Positions 4,540 to 37,214 of a DNA stretch of 37,249 nucleotides are shown here, one piece after another. Source of the stretch: a virus (Duplodnaviria > Caudoviricetes). The stretch is taken from IMG/VR virus record IMGVR_UViG_3300020045_004061, positions 1 through 37,249 of that record. The stretch is one strand, 5' to 3'. The position numbers were made by a program, and so were the translations under genes. The notes under the pieces are model-generated. The model saw only the letters and a list, made by a program, of their open reading frames with translations, did not search any database and was not told where the DNA came from. Position 1 is the first letter of the stretch. Every line of letters begins with the position of its first letter.

Positions 4540-5236
4540 AGATGATTTTTGCAAAGACAATCTTAACAGGCTATCAGGTGCGTTGGTTTACATTACTCGC
4601 GTGTACTACGGATTAAACCCCGAAAACGTGCCCGAAGATATTTTTCGTCTGGCAGTTCAAATAATTTGCGAGAAATATCCAACACTTACATTCGAACAAT
4701 TGAATTTAACATACCTAGAACAAACGATTGAAAAGAAACAAGGTGTTTCCCTTACAAAGGATGAGTTAATCGCTCCAATAGAAGATATGACACGTAAAAA
4801 GCATATCGTTAAAACGATTGAAGAAAACGAAAAACAGGAATACGAAAAACAACAGGCAGAAAAGGAAATAATCCGAAACGAATACAACACTGCTAAACAA
4901 CTGTATTTTGATTCCATGGGTACTGGAATCTACCAAGGAAGCGTATTTCAAGCATCTATGATTATGGAAGCTTTCGCCTCGTTACTTTCGGACGCTGAAA
5001 AAATCGCAATTGGAAAAGAAGCGTTTGAAGATTATCGCTATGAAATGCAAGTTTTCGGAACGGAACAAAGTATGTTTTTTGGTACGGACGTATTTCAAGT
5101 GCCAACAGGATTCGGAATGTACAGCAACGGAAAGCCAAAACCAGCGCATCATTTCTTCATCTCAATGCGTGTTGTGAATAGCGCGTTACAAAGGAATACA
5201 ATTGATAATTTGGGGTGGAAATTTATTGAGGATTGA
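4397..5236 (+). CDS. Hypothetical replication-associated protein
   Basis: Long ORF after the initiator; likely ATG 4397 after an A-rich leader, overlapping the initiator by 143 nt. Confidence 0.6.
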   Translation: MELQQKSHSLSKQKKSQPEYLDMIQAKAMAMNTPIRISKKLIGAMLNEDDFCKDNLNRLSGALVYITRVYYGLNPENVPEDIFRLAVQIICEKYPTLTFEQLNLTYLEQTIEKKQGVSLTKDELIAPIEDMTRKKHIVKTIEENEKQEYEKQQAEKEIIRNEYNTAKQLYFDSMGTGIYQGSVFQASMIMEAFASLLSDAEKIAIGKEAFEDYRYEMQVFGTEQSMFFGTDVFQVPTGFGMYSNGKPKPAHHFFISMRVVNSALQRNTIDNLGWKFIED

Positions 5237-5254
5237 AAATAATTTTAGTGAAAA

Positions 5255-5285
5255 TTTGCATTAGTGACATTTATCACTATATTTG
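5255..5285 (+). promoter_or_regulatory. Bacteroidota promoter with an operator-like inverted repeat in the spacer
   Basis: TTTG (5255-5258), 19-nt spacer, TATATTTG (5278-5285); TAGTGA-N6-TCACTA at 5262-5279. Confidence 0.7.
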
Positions 5286-5305
5286 CATAACAAAAAATAA
5301 ACAAG

Positions 5306-6172
5306 ATGGACGAAGTAAAAATTATTGAACAAGGTCAAATTATCTACAATCAAGACCGAGCGAACATAGATTCGCAAGTATCAACAGCGAAGCAATATCC
5401 TAGAGATATTCAGAAATCTGTTAACAACGCAATTTTCACAGTTACAATGGACAAAGATACAGCTTCAAGTTGTACCTATTCAGTGCCACGTGGAGGAAAA
5501 CCTATTACTGGTGCTTCAGTTCATTTGGCTAGAATATTAGTTCAATTCTGGGGTAATTTGCGAGTTGAAACAAAAGTGATTGATATTACAGATAAGCACG
5601 TAATTAGTCAGGCTACTTGCTGGGATATTGAAAATAACGTTGCCGTTAAAGTCGAGGTTCGTCGTTCAATTATGACTAAAACAGGTCGAATGAGTGAAGA
5701 TATGATAACGGTAACAGGAAATGCGGGTAATGCAATCGCATATCGTAATGCTGTTTATTCTGTTATTCCAAAAGCTGTTATTGATAAAGTATATCGTTCG
5801 GCTATGGGTGTTTTAACGGGTGATATTTCAGACGAAACGAAGTTGATTAAACAAAGAAACAAAGTAGTTGAAGGATTAAAAAAAGCCTACGGGGTTACAG
5901 ATGAAGAAATTCTTTACGCCATTGGAAAATCAAAGTTAGAATACATTGGTGCTGAAGAACTAGTTGTTTTGATTGGTATTGGTACTGCTATCAAAGATGG
6001 TGATACAACAATTCAAGATGCTTTTAAACATCCAGAAAAGAAAGTGCCTAAGAAACCGACTATTTCAAACGATGAAGTTGTGACCGCAATTACCGACGGT
6101 TTGACGTTAGTACAATTGGAAAGCACCTACACGCTTACTGAAGAACAAATCAAAATGTTTGACAATGAGTGA
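5306..6172 (+). CDS. Putative recombination / single-strand annealing protein
   Basis: IDSQVSTAKQYPRD phage motif; adjacent to an exonuclease; function inferred from context. Confidence 0.55.
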   Translation: MDEVKIIEQGQIIYNQDRANIDSQVSTAKQYPRDIQKSVNNAIFTVTMDKDTASSCTYSVPRGGKPITGASVHLARILVQFWGNLRVETKVIDITDKHVISQATCWDIENNVAVKVEVRRSIMTKTGRMSEDMITVTGNAGNAIAYRNAVYSVIPKAVIDKVYRSAMGVLTGDISDETKLIKQRNKVVEGLKKAYGVTDEEILYAIGKSKLEYIGAEELVVLIGIGTAIKDGDTTIQDAFKHPEKKVPKKPTISNDEVVTAITDGLTLVQLESTYTLTEEQIKMFDNE

Positions 6173-6980
6173 ATTTAAGTTACAATTCAGATCGCATAAT
6201 TTTGGGGAGTTATGCGCTTCACTTTCAAAACCTTCGTTAACAGAAACGCAAGAAAAAACCCTTAAAAATTTAATCGATAAAGGTGAGAACGCAACTCTAA
6301 AGCAAAAAGAAACACGTGCTGAATTAATCAAAAAACGTGATGCGCCAATGCAATTAGGCGCTGTTGGTAAATCATTGGTTAAACGAATATTTAACGAAGA
6401 AATTCGCCAAACGTACAAGCAGAATCTTGAATCGATGTACACGTCAAAAGGTAACGAAATGGAAAGTTTCGCAATCCAAAGAATTGCACGAGTGAACGGT
6501 TGGGGTATTTGCGTTAAAAACGAGCAAACTTTTAAAGATAATATCGGTTTTGGAACGCCCGACGTTGTAAAAAAAAATTTTGGATTCGATAGTAAGTGTT
6601 CTTTTACCGATGAAACATTTCCGTTGTGGGAAAACGAGTTAAAAGAATCAAATTACATTTGGCAGAATTACCGATACTGTATGCTTACAGGTCGCACGAA
6701 ATGGTACACTTGTTATTCGCTTGAAAATTCACCCGAAGAAGCGGTTATTAAGCACGCTTGGCAACTGCTCAAAAAATCTGGTCAAACAGAAATGACAGAT
6801 TCGTTTATTGATGACGTTCGTGGATTGCATAATTTCGACCATTTACCCGATTGGGCGCGTGTTAAAACCTTTGAGGTCAATTTAACCGATGAACACGTGA
6901 AAATTGCTCAAACAGCCTACAAATTAGGCTTAGAATATTTTAACGAATTAATTGAAAATTATAAAACTTTTGAGAAATGA
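6165..6980 (+). CDS. YqaJ/lambda-type exonuclease
   Basis: KGNEME, GTPD, DSKCS, YIWQ..YC.LTG motifs. Confidence 0.75.
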   Translation: MSEFKLQFRSHNFGELCASLSKPSLTETQEKTLKNLIDKGENATLKQKETRAELIKKRDAPMQLGAVGKSLVKRIFNEEIRQTYKQNLESMYTSKGNEMESFAIQRIARVNGWGICVKNEQTFKDNIGFGTPDVVKKNFGFDSKCSFTDETFPLWENELKESNYIWQNYRYCMLTGRTKWYTCYSLENSPEEAVIKHAWQLLKKSGQTEMTDSFIDDVRGLHNFDHLPDWARVKTFEVNLTDEHVKIAQTAYKLGLEYFNELIENYKTFEK

Positions 6981-8867: not shown

Positions 8868-9275
8868 ATGAAAGCATATTTAAACAGAGGACGAGTTTTT
8901 GCAGATTTTGACCATGCAGTTTTGCACAACGATTCCATGGATATTCAAGAAATCGAAGTGAAAAACACCAAACACGTAATTGAAACGGTTGTTGACTTTC
9001 TCGACCTTAGTCAGTATTCTGGTGAGTTATTCATTCACCCCGTTAACATCGACGAACACGGTGAAATCATGGACGCGTTGTTTCAGTACTCGCAAAAGTT
9101 CACGTTTCATTCAGATGGTGAAAACGTAACCAATATTCAATTCGAATCTAACAACCTTAAAGAAAAGGAAATGGACTTAGAATGGTTGCAAGAAGAAATT
9201 CAGAAACGTAACGCTGGTATGTTTGATTACAGCAATGACGATTTTATGAGTGAACCAGAGTATTTACGCGATTAA
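8868..9275 (+). CDS. Acidic hypothetical protein
   Basis: Start moved downstream of the promoter motif. Confidence 0.65.
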   Translation: MKAYLNRGRVFADFDHAVLHNDSMDIQEIEVKNTKHVIETVVDFLDLSQYSGELFIHPVNIDEHGEIMDALFQYSQKFTFHSDGENVTNIQFESNNLKEKEMDLEWLQEEIQKRNAGMFDYSNDDFMSEPEYLRD

Positions 9276-9284
9276 ATTAGGATT

Positions 9285-9533
9285 ATGAAAAGATACGTTA
9301 TAACATTTATTAAAATACTCCTATTATGGGATTTACTAGCTTCTTTTGTAACAATGGACTTGTATTGGTTTATACCATATTTCTTTACAACGGAAGATGA
9401 TAGAGCAATTTTTCTATTCATGATGGTTATGGTAGGTATTCTTGCTATACCCTTAAGTCAAACTACTTGGAAAGAATTTCTAGAAGAAGTAAGTGTAGAA
9501 CACGACAAAATTAATAAGGACAAATACCTTTAA
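9285..9533 (+). CDS. Hypothetical membrane protein
   Basis: Two hydrophobic segments. Confidence 0.6.
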   Translation: MKRYVITFIKILLLWDLLASFVTMDLYWFIPYFFTTEDDRAIFLFMMVMVGILAIPLSQTTWKEFLEEVSVEHDKINKDKYL

Positions 9534-9536
9534 GAC

Positions 9537-9719
9537 ATGAAAACACAAGACAAAACACGCGAAGAATTGGTGGAGTTGGTTCAAGAACAAAACTTGCTAA
9601 TCGATACGCTAGAAGACAGGCTATTCGACGAACGATTATTTCGACGATGGGTTTATCCGATTATTTCGGTGGGGCTTATCACATTGACGGTTGTAGTAAT
9701 TAAATTTTTTGAGTTATGA
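9537..9719 (+). CDS. Hypothetical membrane-anchored protein
   Basis: Coiled coil plus C-terminal TM segment. Confidence 0.6.
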   Translation: MKTQDKTREELVELVQEQNLLIDTLEDRLFDERLFRRWVYPIISVGLITLTVVVIKFFEL

Positions 9720-9871
9720 AAACTTATCATATCACATGGTTAATCGGCAAAGACCAAAACGGATTGGACTTGCTAACAGGAATCACAATCGAAGCTGAAG
9801 ATATGGAATCGGCTTTGCATACATTCAAACAAAAACACAATGTTGAACCTTATTATATTTTAACAAGATGA
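9716..9871 (+). CDS. Small hypothetical protein (51 aa, not in ORF track)
   Basis: ATGA-coupled on both sides; MKTYHITWLIG... Confidence 0.6.
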   Translation: MKTYHITWLIGKDQNGLDLLTGITIEAEDMESALHTFKQKHNVEPYYILTR

Positions 9872-10119
9872 AAGTAAAAGTAAACGAAACGCAATCACAG
9901 GAAGTTGATTGGAGTAAAAATCCGCAGTTGGTTGTTAGTGGAAATGGTACAGTTGTAATGACAATGATTCGTCAAATAGATGACGGAAAAGGTGAGTTTA
10001 TTGGAATGGTTGTTTTAGCTGGAGAATCAAGTGCTGACATTTTAGGCTATTATGATACCACATTCTATAGAAAATCTTTCAAACCATTCCACGGTTCAAT
10101 AACACTTCAAAACGATTAA
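9868..10119 (+). CDS. Conserved phage hypothetical protein
   Basis: C-terminal FKPFHGSITLQN. Confidence 0.65.
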   Translation: MKVKVNETQSQEVDWSKNPQLVVSGNGTVVMTMIRQIDDGKGEFIGMVVLAGESSADILGYYDTTFYRKSFKPFHGSITLQND

Positions 10120-11060: not shown

Positions 11061-11542
11061 TGGCTGCTGAAAAAGGGAATCAATGGTGGAAGCTACGAAG
11101 CAAACACGGACGAGATAGGCTATTTGCAAGCCCCGAATTGCTTTGGGAATCTGCTTGCGAGTATTTCAATTGGTGTGACGAAAACCCATGGATTACCGAA
11201 AAATCAGGCTCAAATACTAACGGTTCTTTTCACGAAGAAAAGCCTACACAAAGACCATATTCTTTGACTGGGTGGTTCTTGTATATTGGTTGTTCGGAAA
11301 CTTGGTTAATAAATTTCAAGGCTACTTGCGGAAATGATTTTTTAAGGGTCATTGAACAAGTCGAACAAGTTATCCGCAAACAACAATGGGAAGGTGCAAC
11401 AGTAGGAGCGTTCAAAGAGAACATTATCGCACGTACATTAGGCTTAAAAGATGCTTCAGATTTGACAACAAACGGAAAAGATTTACCAGCGGTCAATCCA
11501 AGTATTACAGTAGAAATAATTAAACCAAAGGAAAGTGAATAA
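11060..11542 (+). CDS. terS: Terminase small subunit, P22 gp3-like
   Basis: MAA.KGNQWWKLRSKHGRD.LF.SPE.LWE.ACEYF.W and NIIAR.LGL. Confidence 0.9.
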   Translation: MAAEKGNQWWKLRSKHGRDRLFASPELLWESACEYFNWCDENPWITEKSGSNTNGSFHEEKPTQRPYSLTGWFLYIGCSETWLINFKATCGNDFLRVIEQVEQVIRKQQWEGATVGAFKENIIARTLGLKDASDLTTNGKDLPAVNPSITVEIIKPKESE

Positions 11543-13704
11543 TGCAAGCTACAATAGTATTCGAAAAGAATTGGAAAGCGATTAACGAGCGTAATGAAGA
11601 CGGAAGTAGAAAGTACAGATACATTATCAACACGGGTAGTTCGCGTTCATCTAAAACCTATTCAATATTACAAAGCCATTATTTAACCGCTTTCTCAAAG
11701 CCAAACTATCGCGTTTCAATTTGGCGCGAAACAAAGCAAGATGTAAAAAATACGGTATTAGCAGACTTTCGAAAAGCGTTACCTAATTTTCCACACAATG
11801 AATCGGTAACGTTTAATAAAACCGAATCAATTTATACGTTCCCGAATAATTCAACAGTTGAGATTTGCGGGGGTGATGACACGAACCGCGTACATGGTTT
11901 CCAAGGTGATGTTGCGCATTTTAACGAGCCTTACAAGATGCCGAAAGAAGTATTTGACCAAATTGATATGCGTACTTCCGATTACATTGTAATAGATTGG
12001 AATCCGAAAGCAAACCATTGGATTGATGAGTTGTCAAAACAAGATAACGCAATTGTCATTCATAGCACATTCAAAGATAACCCATTTTGTCCCGAACAAC
12101 AGCGTTTGAAAATACTATCCTACGAACCAACTGAATACAATACGCAACAGAATACAGCTAACGAATGGATGTGGCAAGTTTACGGACTTGGAATGAAAGC
12201 AGAGAAGCCAAACCGAATCTTTAAATGGAATAAAATTGCACGATCTAAATTCGATGAATTAACACCAAAAGCCGAATTGATTTGCATTGACTGGGGAAAA
12301 TCCGACCCGTGGGGAATATTGCACATGAAGTATTATGATGGTGCTATTTATTTACGTGAATTGAACTACAAATCGGAAAACGAATGGCGTGAATCATTAC
12401 CACCAACCGAGCAGATTAAAATTGGAAGGGATGAAGAAGGTTTAGGAATTGTCGTGTGGATGATGAATAGGTTGAATATTTCAAAGTCCATGGACGTTGT
12501 TTGTGATAATAACCGACCTTTAAAAATCGCTGCATTACGTCGGGCGGGTTGGGAACGTGCATTTCCAGCATCAAAGCCAAAAGGTTCGATTTTAGAAGGT
12601 ATTGATATACTGCAAAACGTCGATGTTTATTTCACCGACGATTCACCAAATATTGAAATGGAACAGGAAAACTATTCATGGAAAGTTGACCGATACGGAA
12701 TTGTTTTAGAGGAAGCAGAAGACGCTTATAACCATTGCTTTGTTGGTAGCACGATGATAAACACAATTGAAGGTCAAAAAAGAATTGATTCAATTAAACT
12801 AAATGATTATGTTTTAACAAGAGAAGGTTACAAAAAAGTACTTAATAAGTATAATAACGGACTAAAAAAGGTTAATGTATATTTGATGCAGTTCGATACT
12901 TTTTCAGTATATTTGCATTCAACAGAAAATCATAAGGTAAAATGCGAAAAAGGATGGATGAAAATATCAGAATTGAAACAGGGGCAAACGGTTTACCTAT
13001 GCAACAATTCAACGGAAAAGAATACTATTTATACCCAAATGAAAGGTATTTTTCAAAAGGCAAAAACAGAATGCATCGTATTGTTTGGGAGTTTCATAAT
13101 GGCTTTATTGAAAAAGGATTTCATATACACCACAAAAACAGAAACACATGGGACAATAGAATTGAAAACCTTGAAATCGTTGAGTCTAAAAAACACTTAT
13201 CCGAACATATCAAAAAAAGGTTTGCAGAAAATCCAGAATGGGTTAAACTTTTTCATCAAAAAGGTATTCAAGAAGCTAAAAAATGGCACGCTTCAGAAGA
13301 AGGAAAGCAATGGCATAGAGAACAAGCTAAAACGACAGGATTCGGAAATAGAACCTATGGAAATTCAAAATGCGAAGTTTGTTCAACAGAATTTGAAATC
13401 AAAACTAAAGGACAAAGATTTTGCCATAACAATTGTAAGTCAAAATGGAGAAGAATGCAAAGAATTGACATCATCAAAGTTGAATGCGTTTCTTGCGGAA
13501 AAGAGTTTGAAAAAGATAAATATTCAAAAGCAAAAACTTGTTCAAATAAGTGTTCTTGGAACTTACGAAGAAGTTGTCTATGATTTACAAATTGATGAAA
13601 AACATGAATATTTTGCAAACGGGGTCTTAGTTCATAATTGCACAGACCCCGCGCGCTATGGTGCGCTACACTTACAAAAGTCTGGGATTATTCGAGTGGT
13701 ATAA
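11542..13704 (+). CDS. terL: Terminase large subunit (PBSX/Terminase_3-like) with intein; 419 aa after splicing
   Basis: Walker A GSSRSSKT, HFNE, DWNP, STFKDNPF, IDWG; NH|C.D..RY nuclease motif split by the intein. Confidence 0.93.
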   Translation: MQATIVFEKNWKAINERNEDGSRKYRYIINTGSSRSSKTYSILQSHYLTAFSKPNYRVSIWRETKQDVKNTVLADFRKALPNFPHNESVTFNKTESIYTFPNNSTVEICGGDDTNRVHGFQGDVAHFNEPYKMPKEVFDQIDMRTSDYIVIDWNPKANHWIDELSKQDNAIVIHSTFKDNPFCPEQQRLKILSYEPTEYNTQQNTANEWMWQVYGLGMKAEKPNRIFKWNKIARSKFDELTPKAELICIDWGKSDPWGILHMKYYDGAIYLRELNYKSENEWRESLPPTEQIKIGRDEEGLGIVVWMMNRLNISKSMDVVCDNNRPLKIAALRRAGWERAFPASKPKGSILEGIDILQNVDVYFTDDSPNIEMEQENYSWKVDRYGIVLEEAEDAYNHCFVGSTMINTIEGQKRIDSIKLNDYVLTREGYKKVLNKYNNGLKKVNVYLMQFDTFSVYLHSTENHKVKCEKGWMKISELKQGQTVYLCNNSTEKNTIYTQMKGIFQKAKTECIVLFGSFIMALLKKDFIYTTKTETHGTIELKTLKSLSLKNTYPNISKKGLQKIQNGLNFFIKKVFKKLKNGTLQKKESNGIENKLKRQDSEIEPMEIQNAKFVQQNLKSKLKDKDFAITIVSQNGEECKELTSSKLNAFLAEKSLKKINIQKQKLVQISVLGTYEEVVYDLQIDEKHEYFANGVLVHNCTDPARYGALHLQKSGIIRVV
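12736..13638 (+). mobile_element. Intein, 301 aa (TerL residues 399-699)
   Basis: Block A CFVGSTMI, block B STENHKV, block F VYDLQI, block G YFANGVLVHN, +1 residue Cys. Confidence 0.93.
12942..13583 (+). CDS. HNH endonuclease with C-terminal zinc fingers, nested out of frame in the intein
   Basis: MHRIVWEFHNG...IHHKNRNTWDNRIENL..H...H; CxxC..FCxxxC and CxxC..TCSxxC; alternative start at 12954. Confidence 0.85.
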   Translation: MRKRMDENIRIETGANGLPMQQFNGKEYYLYPNERYFSKGKNRMHRIVWEFHNGFIEKGFHIHHKNRNTWDNRIENLEIVESKKHLSEHIKKRFAENPEWVKLFHQKGIQEAKKWHASEEGKQWHREQAKTTGFGNRTYGNSKCEVCSTEFEIKTKGQRFCHNNCKSKWRRMQRIDIIKVECVSCGKEFEKDKYSKAKTCSNKCSWNLRRSCL

Positions 13705-14920
13705 CCTTTTCAGCTTCTTCACGTGAATAGCCAGAATCCAAAAGTGTTTTAATAGCCTTGGTTTTTATTTCCATAACTCGTGCGTGTGTTAATTCATCTT
13801 TTTGCAACGCTTGGATATGTGAATAGTCAAGTTCAAGCCATTCATCATCAGGTAAACGTAAACCTTTCGACATAGTAGAACAAAAGTCGTTTGCAAATGG
13901 AATAATTGAATCTTGGTAAGCCATTCGTAATCCTTCATTCAAATTCGCTTGAATCTTTGATTTTTCTTTACTGAAGATGTTGTCATTTAAACCAACCATA
14001 TCTATAATCTTCTTCATATCCTCGGAAATTTCCTCAAATAGCATCATTTGATTGATTGGATAAGCCGTTGATTCAAACTTTAGATTTGCGTTCGATATTG
14101 CTATTGCACTTTGACCGTCAAAATGACCATGACTTTCCTGTGAAAATTGCTTTTCGATTTCTTTTCTATCTTCGCTACCAACCGCAACAGCACCTATTTC
14201 ATCTTTTGTTGAATTGGATATAAACCCAAGCGCACCACGTTTGTTGATATTCGCGTTTCGGAATCCATACGCTCCACGAATATTTGTGATAGGCATATTC
14301 AACGCAATCAAAGGTGAAACTCCCATGAAAGGGTTTTCCGCTGAAATGTTTTTGTGATGGATTAACTCGGATGGTGCGAAATCTCGCTTTGTTTCTCCGT
14401 AGTTTTCAAGAACGTACTTTTCTATAATTTCCTCGATTGTTGACTGTTCCCAACGCTTTTTGGTAAGTTCGATTTTTATTTTGTCGGGTGGTAAATTATT
14501 CATTACCGTTGGAAGCGTTGAAAGTGAACTACCATAAACAGGGTATGTGATACGGTTGCCATAAATCAAATAATGCAACGCGCTTTCAATTTTCCATTCT
14601 TCACCACTTTGTAACGGGTTTGGATTTTCAAGGAATCTAACAAGTTCAGAATCTTCAATGACTTTACCCTGTTTCGTTCCGTTCATTTTCTTATGAACAA
14701 ATCTACCATTTGAAAACATGGATGCAAATCGGTCAAAAACGATTTTAATTTCGGGTGTTGTGTTATAATATTGAAACTCTTTACCGTCAATTGTTAGCCA
14801 GATTTCGCGTTCATTTCCCACATAAGGGTAGTAATTTAAAGGCGGTGTTCTTGTGAAATTATCCGTACCACCCATACGACCCCATTTAATATCTAACTTT
14901 CCGATACTGAAAAAACCCAT
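13688..14920 (-). CDS. Portal protein (HK97-like), inverted
   Basis: LENPNPLQSG.EW, LIYGN, IIHH-like ELIHH, FMGVSPL, AYQDSIIPF, LDYSHIQALQ. Confidence 0.88.
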   Translation of the reverse strand: MGFFSIGKLDIKWGRMGGTDNFTRTPPLNYYPYVGNEREIWLTIDGKEFQYYNTTPEIKIVFDRFASMFSNGRFVHKKMNGTKQGKVIEDSELVRFLENPNPLQSGEEWKIESALHYLIYGNRITYPVYGSSLSTLPTVMNNLPPDKIKIELTKKRWEQSTIEEIIEKYVLENYGETKRDFAPSELIHHKNISAENPFMGVSPLIALNMPITNIRGAYGFRNANINKRGALGFISNSTKDEIGAVAVGSEDRKEIEKQFSQESHGHFDGQSAIAISNANLKFESTAYPINQMMLFEEISEDMKKIIDMVGLNDNIFSKEKSKIQANLNEGLRMAYQDSIIPFANDFCSTMSKGLRLPDDEWLELDYSHIQALQKDELTHARVMEIKTKAIKTLLDSGYSREEAEKVIPLE

Positions 14921-28900: not shown

Positions 28901-29250
28901 ATGATTTAATTGATACAGCGGTTATTTTGACGGAAACGCCACAATTAAACTATGTTGACACAGGAAGTAGAACGATTTCGGTAACGGCAAAGTTTGAAGA
29001 AAAGATTTTGAATAATATTTCAACTTTTTCGAACGATAATCCACAAGCACAACCGATTAGTATTACATTTGCAAACGGTGGATTTGCAACGGTTATAAAT
29101 TCAGATGGTAGTTTTGAGGTTACATTCGATTCAACCGCGCCTTACGAGTTGCCAGATTATACGGTGAACGTGTTACGAAATGGCGTGTTGGTTTCAACGT
29201 CAACATTCCCAACACTTGAACCGATAACAGATATAAACATTACGATATGA
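25885..29250 (+). CDS. Large tail structural protein
   Basis: 1121 aa, beta-rich, in the tail module. Confidence 0.65.
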   Translation: MGLVVVNREWEDEQGRVLNQYIANVLDSRFARITVQTDYTVNIAGGVTLTKTDNFFELPIGQSWESYGIIEGCTVSGTFGGNTVVLGTTVTHVENNFMVLSVNQTGANGIYTSGAISFDIVPESFELFTNYVLSSSNPGDEFSLIDGNPNRFVADGISALTVGGASIAFSQLGNQSGGFNVFPTIQRVADVNGHRNYQINIPNDRLPLYLNSELFEFGDCLKPWYRFSAISQTANPSVRISTVSTFSLGNTGFFNEVFNGGVPDYSVTSAVFKIGGVAVDTFDHNQPTDFEIRVDGVFDASSKFGIAFFRQASDEETQNVPNAINFNTSLSIGDNLSVGTPADIIGFLNPNGAKVDITDIEITEFGTYATIKGTLTPNGAYSSYINGNDVSRLFRLAVKLEDYTLSGNLIRPVWLSVFYEDSAKYFPPLGPWLDAFGFTLFDHDNESIPYVLGTVGGIPAQLVPKNLFTEDNANLQFKLRIPRPTQQEIDERFFTGITLNVIVRKFDGTSFVLESYDSNFGAILTGDDTMVVDSFQARGFKLPPTSVNNEIRVSRASAIDTGTHFGIQVDYGFLVNWQYWLAQTNADIVFFPNQNKDWYHYQNEDGAQWGVWVEFLLHTSDGDYENKANINHYDYDTFAGVAGGTSVISYHLVDGTPITMPLADQVTMVRATHTAPSGFIMDALRTWGEITVEPKENAPRWLTSSVYDNGSVTGNPFQPLAGQTKCKLTIAGSVAILETLIDPTVLNLSNGLKFTSEISSEVRKGSDIERFKNRTKDETDTVKTPKTFESDDRAEFDCCEKRKVIGDLTSTEPKKNDVTGHWMAGESVTFKLFDHDGDTGYVIDSLPFAQQANMWYCQLNWREILGLYGSGCYRLVTEVDYAGLTETLTIENYQLLPYSIESTVNDVRVTSVYNAYDLKNGVIFNGTNVIDSIRVDGQFNYSQPNLNVRNYTKTSFEQNKITRQQRETFELRTGQLTDKFVKLLKYALQHENYLLITDYCLINPRYDLIDTAVILTETPQLNYVDTGSRTISVTAKFEEKILNNISTFSNDNPQAQPISITFANGGFATVINSDGSFEVTFDSTAPYELPDYTVNVLRNGVLVSTSTFPTLEPITDINITI

Positions 29251-34176: not shown

Positions 34177-34635
34177 ATGACAACACAAGAAGCAATTAAA
34201 CGATTTGGAACGCCAAATGAAGCTGGTACATACCTAACAACAATCGAACTACCATACCCAATGCGCATAGCTTGGGACACAAAGACAACTGTTAAAAAGA
34301 TGCGATGCCATAAATCGGTTGCCGAAAATTTTAAGGCAGTATTTACTGAATTACTCGCTGTTTACGGTTACGATAAAATCAAAGAATTAGGAATTGATCT
34401 ATTTGGAGGTTGTTTTAATTTCCGAAAAATGCGCGGTGGCACGTCTTACTCAATGCACGCATGGGGAATTGCAATTGACCTAGACCCAGCACGAAACAAG
34501 TTGAAAGAAACTAGTAAAACAGCAAGATTTGCACGTACAGAATATAAACCAATGATTGATATTTTTTACAAGCACGGATTTATTTCTTTGGGCGTAGAAA
34601 AGAATTATGATTGGATGCACTTCGAAATCAAATAA
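34177..34635 (+). CDS. Endolysin, M15 family zinc peptidase
   Basis: [31 protein letters not shown]. Confidence 0.88.
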
Positions 34636-34727
34636 TTTACTATCTTTGAAAAAGTATAAAGGGGTACGAATCTTTTATAACTTTTCAAATTGAAGCACGT
34701 TGCATTTGAGTAACACTTTTTAAAACT

Positions 34728-34756
34728 AAGCCGTTCATAAATGTTCGGCTTTTTTT
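34728..34756. terminator. Terminator at the convergence of + and - gene blocks
   Basis: AAGCCG...CGGCTT stem followed by a T-run. Confidence 0.6.
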
Positions 34757-34758
34757 AC

Positions 34759-34992
34759 TCAAAACGGCGTGTCTTTATGCGTTACAATTGGAAGTGACCA
34801 ATAAACATCGACAGTCATTGATTCAAGCTGACTGAACGACTTTCTTTGCATACCCAGCATAAATCCTTTATCTTCCCATTTAGCGCACTTCAGAACTCCA
34901 AAGTATCGTTTATGGCTTTCAAATGGTAACCTATAAAGTTCTTTTTTATGCCAGATATACTTTTTTCCGTTATATTCAAATCCTTTATTCAT
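34759..34992 (-). CDS. Hypothetical protein
   Basis: 77 aa; LYRLPF motif; last gene of the minus-strand block. Confidence 0.65.
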   Translation of the reverse strand: MNKGFEYNGKKYIWHKKELYRLPFESHKRYFGVLKCAKWEDKGFMLGMQRKSFSQLESMTVDVYWSLPIVTHKDTPF

Positions 34993-35028
34993 AATGCTTT
35001 TACATATTATGTGGCGCGTAGTAGCTAG

Positions 35029-35253
35029 TTATGGGCAAGCGATTTCTCGCCACGCAATAATTTCAGCAAATGGAAAATTTTCATCACTGAAATTCAATAT
35101 TGTTCCATCATCAAATAGCACCTCAAAATCTCTGTCATTAGGCATAGCTTTTAAATTTTCCTCGTTATCCTTAACGAATCGCCAGCCCATAACATCGGCT
35201 ATATTCAATGCCGAAGATTGTGCTTTATCAATACTCTGTTTTTCTTTACTCAT
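35029..35253 (-). CDS. Hypothetical protein (cassette 1)
   Basis: Starts in the loop of element A; stop TAA coincides with the cassette boundary. Confidence 0.7.
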   Translation of the reverse strand: MSKEKQSIDKAQSSALNIADVMGWRFVKDNEENLKAMPNDRDFEVLFDDGTILNFSDENFPFAEIIAWREIACP

Positions 35254-35319
35254 TTTATTTATAATTTAAAGTTTCTACTATTTAATTCGGCACTGAAATA
35301 TAGCCGAGTACCGTTACCG
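35187..35319 (+). repeat. attC-like element A (133 bp)
   Basis: CCATAAC-A-TCGGCTATATTCAATGCCGAA ... TTCGGCACTGAAATATAGCCGA-GTACC-GTTACCG. Confidence 0.82.
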
Positions 35320-35338
35320 CTAATTGCTCGTATCGTTT

Positions 35339-36034
35339 TCAAAAGAGCGATTGTTGAGCAACGTGGTTGATAATTCTTTGTTTTGTATCTGTAAAATATT
35401 CTTTGTCAATTTCACAAGCGGTTAATGTTAAGTTCATTTTTTCAAATCTGTTCATTTCTTCAATAGCTATTGCGTGACTTCCAGAACCAAGATGTGTATC
35501 AATTATTTTAAATCCTTCTTTTGCATAGTTTTTTAAAATCCATTTATACAGCTGAGTAGGTTTTTGAGTTGGGTGTATTCTTTTATCCGTTTGCTGTCCT
35601 CTGTGGTATCTAAAAAACCTTACAGCAGTATCAAATGAAGTCCAAGCCATTTCTCCATCAGCAAACGAAAAACCATCATTTTTTTTATCCCAAATTAACC
35701 AACATTTACTATCAAATGGTATTTTAGAAATAAAATGATTTGCCCCCCAAATGATTTGATTTTTTGAAACTCTTTGTAATTCCATAAAATATTCAATACT
35801 TGGTGTTTCATTATCCCAATCTTTTACTTTATGTTTTGAACCACTCCAATTAGCATTACCATCCATTCCAATTCCATAAGGCGGGTCAACAATAGCTAAA
35901 TCAAAGTAATTATCTGGATAACGGCTCATTAACTCCATATTATCCTCACACGTTATCGTTAAACCACCCACAACTAGCGGTAACACGTGTTTGGAGCAAT
36001 GCGGGGTTTGGTCTTTAATTTTAATATCTTGCAT
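35339..36034 (-). CDS. N6-adenine/N4-cytosine DNA methyltransferase (cassette 2)
   Basis: DLAIVDPPYG, IIWGANHF, HPTQKP, DTHLGSGS. Confidence 0.92.
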   Translation of the reverse strand: MQDIKIKDQTPHCSKHVLPLVVGGLTITCEDNMELMSRYPDNYFDLAIVDPPYGIGMDGNANWSGSKHKVKDWDNETPSIEYFMELQRVSKNQIIWGANHFISKIPFDSKCWLIWDKKNDGFSFADGEMAWTSFDTAVRFFRYHRGQQTDKRIHPTQKPTQLYKWILKNYAKEGFKIIDTHLGSGSHAIAIEEMNRFEKMNLTLTACEIDKEYFTDTKQRIINHVAQQSLF

Positions 36035-36110
36035 CTTTGTTATGTTTTGTTATTAATTGAAAATTGGTGCATTTTTAGCCCGCACTGCACCAAGCACGGG
36101 AACGTTAGCA
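35978..36110 (+). repeat. attC-like element B (133 bp)
   Basis: CGGTAAC-A-CGTGTTTGGAGCAATGCGGG ... CCCGCACTGCACCAAGCACG-GGAAC-GTTAGCA. Confidence 0.82.
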
Positions 36111-36506
36111 AACAGTTTCAACAACCGTTTCGTAATTGAAAGCCGTCCCCATCCACATTGAGTGAATAATGCTTCGGTAAAGTCTTTTAGAGTTCATTGC
36201 ATATTTATTTTGAGAATGAAAACTAATCGGTTCTAATACTTGTGCCGGAGTTGAGTAATTTCTTTTTGTAAAATCATATTTACCGCCTTTATCTTTTACA
36301 CAATTTTCAAGATAATATTCAAAAGTTGGCAACTGTAATCTTCCTGTGTTTAACCATCGGTTTGGATTGTTTGCGATAATATCTATTCTTAATTTCAGAT
36401 ACTCTTTGTAATGCTCCATATCCTCATAAATCCTGCACAAAACCGATTTGCTAACATCGGTTTGCACGCATTGTGGCTTTGGGTCTGTGTTTGAATTTTT
36501 AGACAT
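36105..36506 (-). CDS. Hypothetical protein (cassette 3)
   Basis: Starts in the loop of element C; stop at the cassette boundary. Confidence 0.7.
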   Translation of the reverse strand: MSKNSNTDPKPQCVQTDVSKSVLCRIYEDMEHYKEYLKLRIDIIANNPNRWLNTGRLQLPTFEYYLENCVKDKGGKYDFTKRNYSTPAQVLEPISFHSQNKYAMNSKRLYRSIIHSMWMGTAFNYETVVETVC

Positions 36507-36583
36507 AATTTAAAGTTTAGTTTATTTTTGTTAATATTGTTTCTCACTCGCCACAACGACGAGCAAGCCGAAGACCGTTATGC
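36449..36583 (+). repeat. attC-like element C (135 bp)
   Basis: TGCTAAC-A-TCGGTTTGCACGCATTGTGGC ... GCCACAACGACGAGCAAGCCGA-AGACC-GTTATGC. Confidence 0.8.
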
Positions 36584-36829
36584 AACAGTTTCAGAACGTA
36601 TGCGTTTAAAAACCTCTAATAATCCATTAATATCTACAGGATTTTTTCTTGAAACCTGCGCTCTACTTTCTGAAAAATACAATCCATCATCATCTTGCAT
36701 AATTGTTTCTTTCCATAATGCAAATTCAATAGCGAATATTTCGGCTACTACAATTATTTCGTTAACAGCTCCTTTAAGAACTCCACCATCATTTAATATT
36801 GCATTTTCTATTTTTTGTTCTAAATCCAT
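36578..36829 (-). CDS. Hypothetical protein (cassette 4)
   Basis: FAIEFALW motif; stop at the cassette boundary. Confidence 0.7.
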   Translation of the reverse strand: MDLEQKIENAILNDGGVLKGAVNEIIVVAEIFAIEFALWKETIMQDDDGLYFSESRAQVSRKNPVDINGLLEVFKRIRSETVA

Positions 36830-36853
36830 TTTGTGTTATTTTAAAAACCGATT

Positions 36854-36986
36854 ACATAACAGCAATTATGCGGGATTTTCGGCTTAGTTATTAATTTAAT
36901 TAATTTTTTGTGTTTGTGAATATTAGTTTTTATCTGATAAGTTAGGCTTTTTAAGTCCCTAACTAGAGTTATGCTCAACGTTACTC
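36854..36986 (+). repeat. attC-like element D (133 bp, poorly paired arms)
   Basis: ACATAAC-A-GCA ... TGC-TCAAC-GTTACTC; same length and end boxes as A and B. Confidence 0.55.
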
Positions 36987-37214
36987 TTCAAATGATTCAT
37001 AATGTTTTTTCTCTACCGCCTCAAACAGCAACTGCCTATCGATTATTTCTAATATTTTATAAAAATGATCTTCTGGTATTGGATTGTCTAATTTAGAATT
37101 AAACCATCTTTGCCTAACTTGCCCGAACGATGTTTTAGTTTTATTTGCAATAACTTTTAATATTGCTGTCTTATGCTTCATTAAAGCATATTTTTCTGTG
37201 ATTTGTTTTTTCAT
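36981..37214 (-). CDS. Hypothetical protein, possible HTH (possible cassette 5)
   Basis: Stop TAA lies on the GTTA box of element D. Confidence 0.65.
   Translation of the reverse strand: MKKQITEKYALMKHKTAILKVIANKTKTSFGQVRQRWFNSKLDNPIPEDHFYKILEIIDRQLLFEAVEKKHYESFEE

Follow-up and report, generated by a model that had tools for sequence, protein, structure and literature searches.

Integrons gather genes as cassettes, mobile units whose attC hairpins end in AAC/GTT, have covarying arms, recombine at a G|TT crossover and carry cassette-specific matching boxes, and their arrays, which can be long, adjoin an entry site that is not a hairpin and that neighbours the gene of a tyrosine recombinase, the integrase IntI. 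Canonical attC sites feature a 6/5 spacer and flipped-out bases on the R''-L'' arm. Integrase-less clusters of such hairpins (CALINs) with DNA methyltransferase cargo have been published from virulent phages (Qi et al. 2023, PMC9892861), and in the accessible sections of that study the sites are taken as ordinary attC, with polarity, starts in hairpin loops and a recombinase undescribed. For Bacteroidetes proper, the accessible part of the IntegronFinder 2.0 report lists one complete integron, and standard tools report almost none (PMC9024848).

Here, we describe an array of four gene cassettes in a virus contig of 37,249 bp, which as a whole constitutes the window analysed, together with related arrays from other phages and from Bacteroidota chromosomes. 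The AAC/GTT hairpins with covarying arms, the G|TT crossover, the cassette-specific boxes and the long arrays, of up to ~0.5 Mb in one chromosome, recur in this family, and a non-hairpin end site, a candidate attI, is present in the window and adjoins a tyrosine recombinase elsewhere. The family differs from integrons in its recombinase, which has no IntI insertion and in hosts is mostly co-oriented with the array, in its sites, marked by a 5/1 loop, a C.A mismatch and a G.T pair and by boxes of 12 nt, and in the opposite strand of the phage genes. The system is integron-like in its working, yet its integrase, site anatomy and gene polarity place it outside the integrons. We consider it probable that the four cassettes are exchanged as exact AAC units, most likely by a Xer-like recombinase, and that the loops are likely to supply translation starts. 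In the openly accessible literature that was searched, we found no description of such a reversed-cassette system.

Setting and composition of the array

The contig encodes a terminase, a portal, a capsid and an M15 endolysin (Pfam), and its nearest cultured relatives are phages of Flavobacteriia. The array region is a minus-strand run of small genes, convergent with the endolysin gene (34177-34635, plus strand). A six-frame profile search found no tyrosine recombinase on the contig (best E 0.14), and since none is encoded there, the enzyme would come in trans. An overlap between the contig ends was looked for and not found, and a two-box promoter pattern is absent upstream of the array. Two divergent TAnnTTTG boxes are located at 257 (minus) and 404 (plus), and in a circular genome the leftward -7 box at 257 could be a candidate promoter for the operon of the array. 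Elsewhere in the window, positions 1-230 form a low-complexity start that looks like poor sequence and holds a weak match to the hairpin model (131-228; 23.5 bits, E 0.018). The large terminase gene (11542-13704) has a Pfam match, under the cut-off, to an intein, and a 213-aa HNH-like ORF (12942-13583) is nested in it on the same strand in another frame. The portal gene (13688-14920) lies on the minus strand, flanked by plus-strand terminase and head genes, and a search for a flanking inverted repeat of at least 8 nt found none.

The features of the array region, in window coordinates, are:

34722-34756, no strand: terminator-like stem (sequence and fold; putative function) separating the array operon from the endolysin gene that converges on it
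34759-34992, minus: 77-aa gene behind the end site, in the slot of the short recombinase of related phages; no Pfam or PHROG match
35005-35040, minus: attI-like end site without a hairpin, crossover G|TTA at 35028/35029; box matches cassette 1
35029-35313, minus: cassette 1, 285 bp; 74-aa gene 35029-35253, start in the loop of hairpin A, stop the crossover TAA
35191-35315, minus: hairpin A, attC-like, AAC..GTT, 5/1 internal loop; z = -4.4
35314-36104, minus: cassette 2, 791 bp; N6/N4 DNA methyltransferase gene 35339-36034 (PF01555), start in the loop of hairpin B
35982-36106, minus: hairpin B, AAC..GTT; z = -3.3
36105-36577, minus: cassette 3, 473 bp; 133-aa gene 36105-36506, start in the loop of hairpin C, stop the crossover TAA
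36453-36579, minus: hairpin C, AAC..GTT; z = -2.5
36578-36980, minus: cassette 4, 403 bp; 83-aa gene 36578-36829, own start downstream of the site
36857-36983, minus: decayed hairpin D, 127 nt, arms no longer pair; crossover 36980/36981
36981-37214, minus: upstream 77-aa gene, stop the first crossover TAA; weak phrog_3423 match (E 0.009)

The array (35029-36980) has three strong hairpins of 125-127 nt, one decayed hairpin and, at 35028, an end site that is not a hairpin. The z values listed for hairpins A-C score folding against 200 base shuffles; on that measure the fold of site D (z -1.2) is no better than chance, while the family model, built without site D, gives it 32.9 bits (E 2e-4). A 34-nt hairpin ending at 36890 was dropped as a candidate for site D in favour of the 127-nt decayed site. 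The window hairpins gave no matches in Rfam. R-box matching ties each hairpin to its own cassette, as in a preliminary description, with the 9 nt after GTT agreeing with the cassette's own box at 7, 8, 7 and 6 of 9 positions and at 1-4 in the other 12 pairings. All cassette genes are likewise on the minus strand, as that description had it, with the attC-like site at the gene's 5' end because the phages use reverse polarity, and this holds for all four cassettes. The plus-strand ORFs at 34994-35269 and 36528-36887 have no Pfam or PHROG matches. The match of a related contig starts exactly at 35028, a related-contig match ends at 36979, and 36576-36869 of the cassette 4 region is also matched by a related contig. 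The end site is placed like those preceding the recombinase in other phages, which it resembles beyond the box by eye only.

Cassette exchange, site anatomy and the recombinase

Both mobility and polarity were established by comparing sequences. Outside the window, the methyltransferase cassette is found in 12 viral loci, where it keeps its own boxes amid different neighbours, and a plasmid search with an array returned methyltransferase matches only. Cultured Lillamyvirus and Muminvirus phages carry such arrays, and hemulen6-1 has 16 detector hits, all on one strand. Alignments of near-identical cultured isolates, from which the breakpoints come rather than from the 37,249-bp contig, show that what distinguishes isolates of Flavobacterium and Polaribacter phages is whole cassettes whose ends fall precisely at AAC. 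In lillamy9-7, compared with lillamy9-1, a 439-bp cassette is relocated to the end site and a 476-bp cassette is absent, mumin6-4 and snork6-2 each miss one cassette, and all breakpoints among the lillamy, mumin and snork isolates bracket TAAC. The Polaribacter phage Freya_9 lacks the 307-bp cassette of Freya_10, and the junction shares only AAC. The moving unit is a hairpin plus its gene without target duplication, which sets it apart from MITEs and dispersed repeats; the part of a MITE paper available to us does not mention attC (PMC11602168). Nor does the word 'cassette' occur in the available text of the papers that report the isolation of these phages (PMC7077304, PMC8776804). Single gene bodies are found with several hairpins and single hairpins with several bodies, a pattern suggestive of additional exchange at the GTT box or of cassettes being built more than once. 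One viral contig (L013) has two arrays facing each other (4551-6866 and 8893-9877).

The phages' own homologous recombination between similar hairpins, with no site-specific enzyme, could also shuffle cassettes, and the short stretches common to hairpins, the same gene occurring with different hairpins and the lack of an array recombinase in the window contig and hemulen6-1 would fit it. However, identity at the junctions spans only 3-7 nt, centred on AAC, one cassette was relocated to a non-hairpin end site, and other phages have a dedicated recombinase at a fixed distance behind the end site, which makes this route very unlikely.

A tyrosine recombinase with PF13495 and PF00589 and intact catalytic motifs adjoins the chromosomal arrays; the recombinases of array loci were detected by profile searches, a first regex search having found none. 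They lack ~40 residues of the IntI insertion, the spacing from K..K.R to HxxR being 53-62 residues, compared with 100-101 in 14 of 14 IntI, and they score 172-215 bits on TIGR02249 (cut-off 265). A midpoint-rooted FastTree phylogeny of 94 sequences, from which 15 loci without a recombinase ORF were left out, places the array recombinase outside the IntI clade, although deep nodes are weak, and the phage enzymes do not form a single clade. The best structural match is XerA (4a8e, Z 24.0; IntIA 2a3v, Z 19.8), and NCBI labels these proteins XerA or XerD. In lacking the IntI insertion and in the XerA match they are similar to the XerA and 'Integron-like' simple tyrosine recombinases, none of which is tied to a cassette array in the available text of their description (10.1101/542381). 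The host form has an additional 78-residue N-terminal domain (pLDDT 51 when predicted alone), whose predicted resemblance to the T4 UvsW N-terminus (Z 7.3, rmsd 2.3, 64 residues) is a lead only; an Atlas search with this domain returned only unnamed Bacteroidota clusters, at < 0.9. A 552-aa host recombinase (L167, 3009-4667) apparently has three copies of the domain.

Of 80 viral loci with a recombinase relative, 19 have the array, the end site and the short enzyme in line, as in Freya, three have the host layout, and 58 are without an array nearby, many of these being short or other recombinases. The short phage enzyme (265-298 aa) is mostly found 47-56 nt after the end site, on the same strand as the array. 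In the Danklef loci L260/L264 the annotation reduces the recombinase that follows the array to a fragment of 43 codons, and phi19:3 gp036, considered as an array enzyme, was ruled out as a different integrase. In the genus of G004 the recombinase (E < 1e-70) is present in 36 of 61 genomes, and hairpins occur in 35 of these 36 as compared with 12 of the 25 others (p 9e-6, with at most 57 candidates scored per genome). From this linkage we infer the role of the recombinase; the 58 array-less viral loci, the 12 enzyme-less genomes holding hairpins and the one enzyme-bearing genome holding none speak against enzyme-driven shuffling. A close relative of the recombinase was present in 52 of 151 sampled Bacteroidota genomes, and given the near-absence of integrons reported there by standard tools, the system matters.

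With at least two attC-type sites and no integrase nearby, the window has the arrangement of a CALIN, yet its sites are not canonical attC. Were they nevertheless ordinary attC sites served by a canonical IntI, with the Xer-like gene as a bystander, the AAC/GTT boxes, the G|TT crossover and the published CALINs of lytic phages (PMC9892861) would be accounted for. This reading is highly improbable given the different internal loop, the absence of any IntI above the cut-off in five array-bearing Bacteroidota genomes, and the behaviour of P12002L_attC1, a short member of the present hairpin family and its sole assayed member, which in the accessible results of Qi et al. gave zero recombinants with IntI1 (PMC9892861). 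Qi et al. found one family site in the P12002L array region, where we count ~8 in the 18 kb scanned, as far as their accessible text goes (PMC9892861). Their P12002L_attC2 is the array's end site on the other strand (L317, NC_028924, ~29170-29243), and it recombined in the published assay, according to the same text (PMC9892861).

On the coding strand, 91 sites read AAC, 5 unpaired nt, an arm of ~20 bp with a C.A mismatch and a G.T pair, the loop, the second arm, 1 nt and GTT, the 5/1 loop being partly built in because the detector was tuned to that shape. The inner structure of canonical attC is not seen in family sites. The detector requires AAC[G/A] and TGTT, by which some sites are missed, and cassettes with a box match < 6/9 or a body outside 90-3500 nt were left out of the counts. 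Among 51 diverse sites, 94% of cells are paired (slid controls 33-51%) and 19 of 23 pairs changed on both sides. Folding is more favourable on the coding strand in 172 of 246 sites, but the margin is only 1 kcal/mol, and hairpin B folds better on the non-coding strand. From the crossover position within the coding strand's 5' AAC, and from tyrosine-recombinase chemistry, we infer that this strand would be the one folded and cut. Exceptionally long hairpins (185-195 nt) whose loops hold at least 43 codons of the gene occur in L004 (5155-5339), L015 (3526-3719) and L258 (3791-3978).

If the hairpins were mainly RNA elements, such as terminators, processing signals or translation-control stems, with mobility secondary, the nearly invariant G.T pair (49 of 51 sites on the coding strand) would suit RNA, and attC stems do influence translation in class 1 integrons, according to the accessible part of PMC8876359. 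The same asymmetries persist, however, in chromosomes, which transcribe the other strand; a U-tract is missing after the hairpin, as are Rfam matches, and box pairing across a whole gene is sensible only for a circular DNA unit. We regard an RNA role as extremely improbable.

In the favoured scheme, a Xer-like tyrosine recombinase would most likely act on the folded gene-sense strand. The coding-strand cassette would comprise C, a 5-nt spacer, arm, loop, arm, GTT plus 9 nt, the gene, and 9 nt plus AA, and after excision, pairing of the two 12-nt boxes within the circle would close the hairpin. New cassettes would probably enter at the non-hairpin end site at 35028, the promoter-distal end. An integron-type Pc at the end site could not drive the phage genes because they read toward it.

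Probable translation starts in the hairpin loops

The preliminary description had cassette genes starting inside the hairpin. This applies to three window genes, with starts at 35253, 36034 and 36506 in loops, 60, 50 and 51 nt ahead of GTT, and peptides (SALNIADV|MG, PHCSKHV|LP, PQCVQTDV|SK) as quoted there, but not to the fourth (36578-36829), whose start lies downstream of its site. Loop starts account for 52 of 141 phage cassettes, starts behind the box for 86 and starts in an arm for three, so a loop start is one of two designs; loop starts were found in 52 of 116 long hairpins and in none of 25 short ones, and no host cassette among 44 has a loop-started gene on the coding strand. Four of five window stops are indeed the TTA of G|TTA (35029, 36105, 36578, 36981), the methyltransferase stop lying 25 nt away, but as a rule this overstates the case because, of 141 phage cassettes, 31 stop at the crossover TAA and 47 at 12 nt before. 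With 78 of the 141 stops falling at the hairpin base or 12 nt short of it, a putative coupling of translation to termination there is possible, and a loop of 60-70 nt could accept a 30S subunit without coupling. A general rule that mini-ORFs end just ahead of downstream starts was unsupported, with only a few among 57.

Loop starts have A at -12 in 45 of 52 and at -13 in 38 of 52, positions shown to be important for initiation in F. johnsoniae in the available text of PMC6847099. The counts at -3 (34 of 52) and -6 (27 of 52) are hardly above the 51% A of the loops. The A-rich tract behind the box is lacking in loop-start cassettes (0.27 vs 0.43, p 2.5e-7, 88 cassettes). Judged by the A at -12, the A-rich loop looks like a Bacteroidota initiation region. 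For all three loop-start window genes, some homologues have no leader and others have leaders that are unrelated to one another and fused at the box, and, as had been suggested for the first ~20 aa, the initial 14-25 residues are a non-homologous extension. By hand count, 29 of 120 methyltransferase homologues among the matches listed have a leader; the 133-aa gene has homologues with many leaders joined at V|SKSV as well as leaderless ones, and relatives of the 74-aa gene have other leaders or none.

Under an alternative that keeps the cassette system, the loop ATGs go unused, translation begins behind the box and the leaders result from misannotation. An in-frame GTG there in 12 of 12 methyltransferase loci would give a length like that of leaderless homologues, the 74-aa gene has an ATG (Met22) there, most phage cassettes (86/141) do start there, and leaders have no common sequence. 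On the other side, of 13 methyltransferase loci matched, one was cut, and the 12 with a full hairpin all have an open in-frame loop ATG, over unrelated hairpins with eight arm sequences, compared with 33 of 312 and 12 of 183 frame slots in control hairpins (7-11% per frame). The GTG is not preceded by A at -3, -12 or -13, Met22 is missing in relatives of the 74-aa gene, and the 133-aa gene offers no Met until residue 30, a Met that is missing in most close homologues. We judge this alternative unlikely.

Use of the loop start thus remains the preferred reading for roughly one in three phage cassettes (and for three of the window's four), in which the A-rich loop probably holds the initiation region and the ATG and the 3' arm would be translated as a dispensable leader, while the remaining phage cassettes would start just behind the box. 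The proposed portable initiation module is borne out insofar as the hairpin travels with the gene downstream and its loop resembles an initiation region, but loop starts are confined to the 52 cassettes; the proposed leader role finds the extension present, but leaders vary freely and look tolerated rather than functional. In class 1 integrons the site also aids the cassette's translation start, through ORF-11/17/18 in attI1 and short ORFs in attC; there, in the accessible text, the aid is a separate short ORF or the upstream unit's site, whereas in phage cassettes the gene's own site would give the start codon and N-terminus (PMC8876359).

Polarity of phage and host cassettes

Among 153 viral cassettes from 47 loci, which are not independent, 141 are reversed, two conventional and 10 unclear, the two exceptions being doubtful ORFs. 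In contrast, 137 chromosomal cassettes from 31 loci, also not independent, comprise 105 conventional, seven reversed and 25 unclear. At least four of these seven look like true phage-type cassettes in host arrays, and phage-polarity cassettes lie inside oppositely oriented chromosomal arrays in L132 (8267), L254 (9847, 11329) and L255. Scanning 185,579 genomes for the pattern yielded 44 stretches, most of them from Bacteroidota. In G001, of which four 20-kb stretches were read closely, one-strand hairpin hits extend from 3.486 to 3.978 Mb (~0.5 Mb) and end beside a 368-aa recombinase, a layout also seen in G002, G003, G014, G024, G030 and G064. The recombinase is divergent from the array in G011 and G036, and otherwise mostly co-oriented. 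Host chromosomes carry the same hairpin family, but there the genes occupy the opposite strand, which is the arrangement of ordinary integrons. Somewhat tentatively, we suggest that the system may be a second, independent integron lineage, in which a Xer-like recombinase that lacks the IntI insertion, and that in hosts has a UvsW/HARP-like N-terminal domain, would act on folded single strands throughout Bacteroidota, with the direction reversed in their phages.

If this is true, the opposed polarities would form a firewall at the level of expression: any cassette that crossed over, be it a host defence cassette into a phage array or a phage methyltransferase cassette into a host array, would land antisense to the operon. 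Were both boxes used for exchange, gene bodies would also trade hairpin 'heads', which would re-tune translation and N-termini. Lytic phages would shuffle methyltransferases via this cassette system, and the available text of the isolating study links methyltransferases to host-dependent plating (PMC7077304). Cultured phage-host pairs allow asking whether hairpin recombination needs the IntI insertion, and the system bears on the origin of cassettes and on the opposed facing of the phage and host cassette pools.
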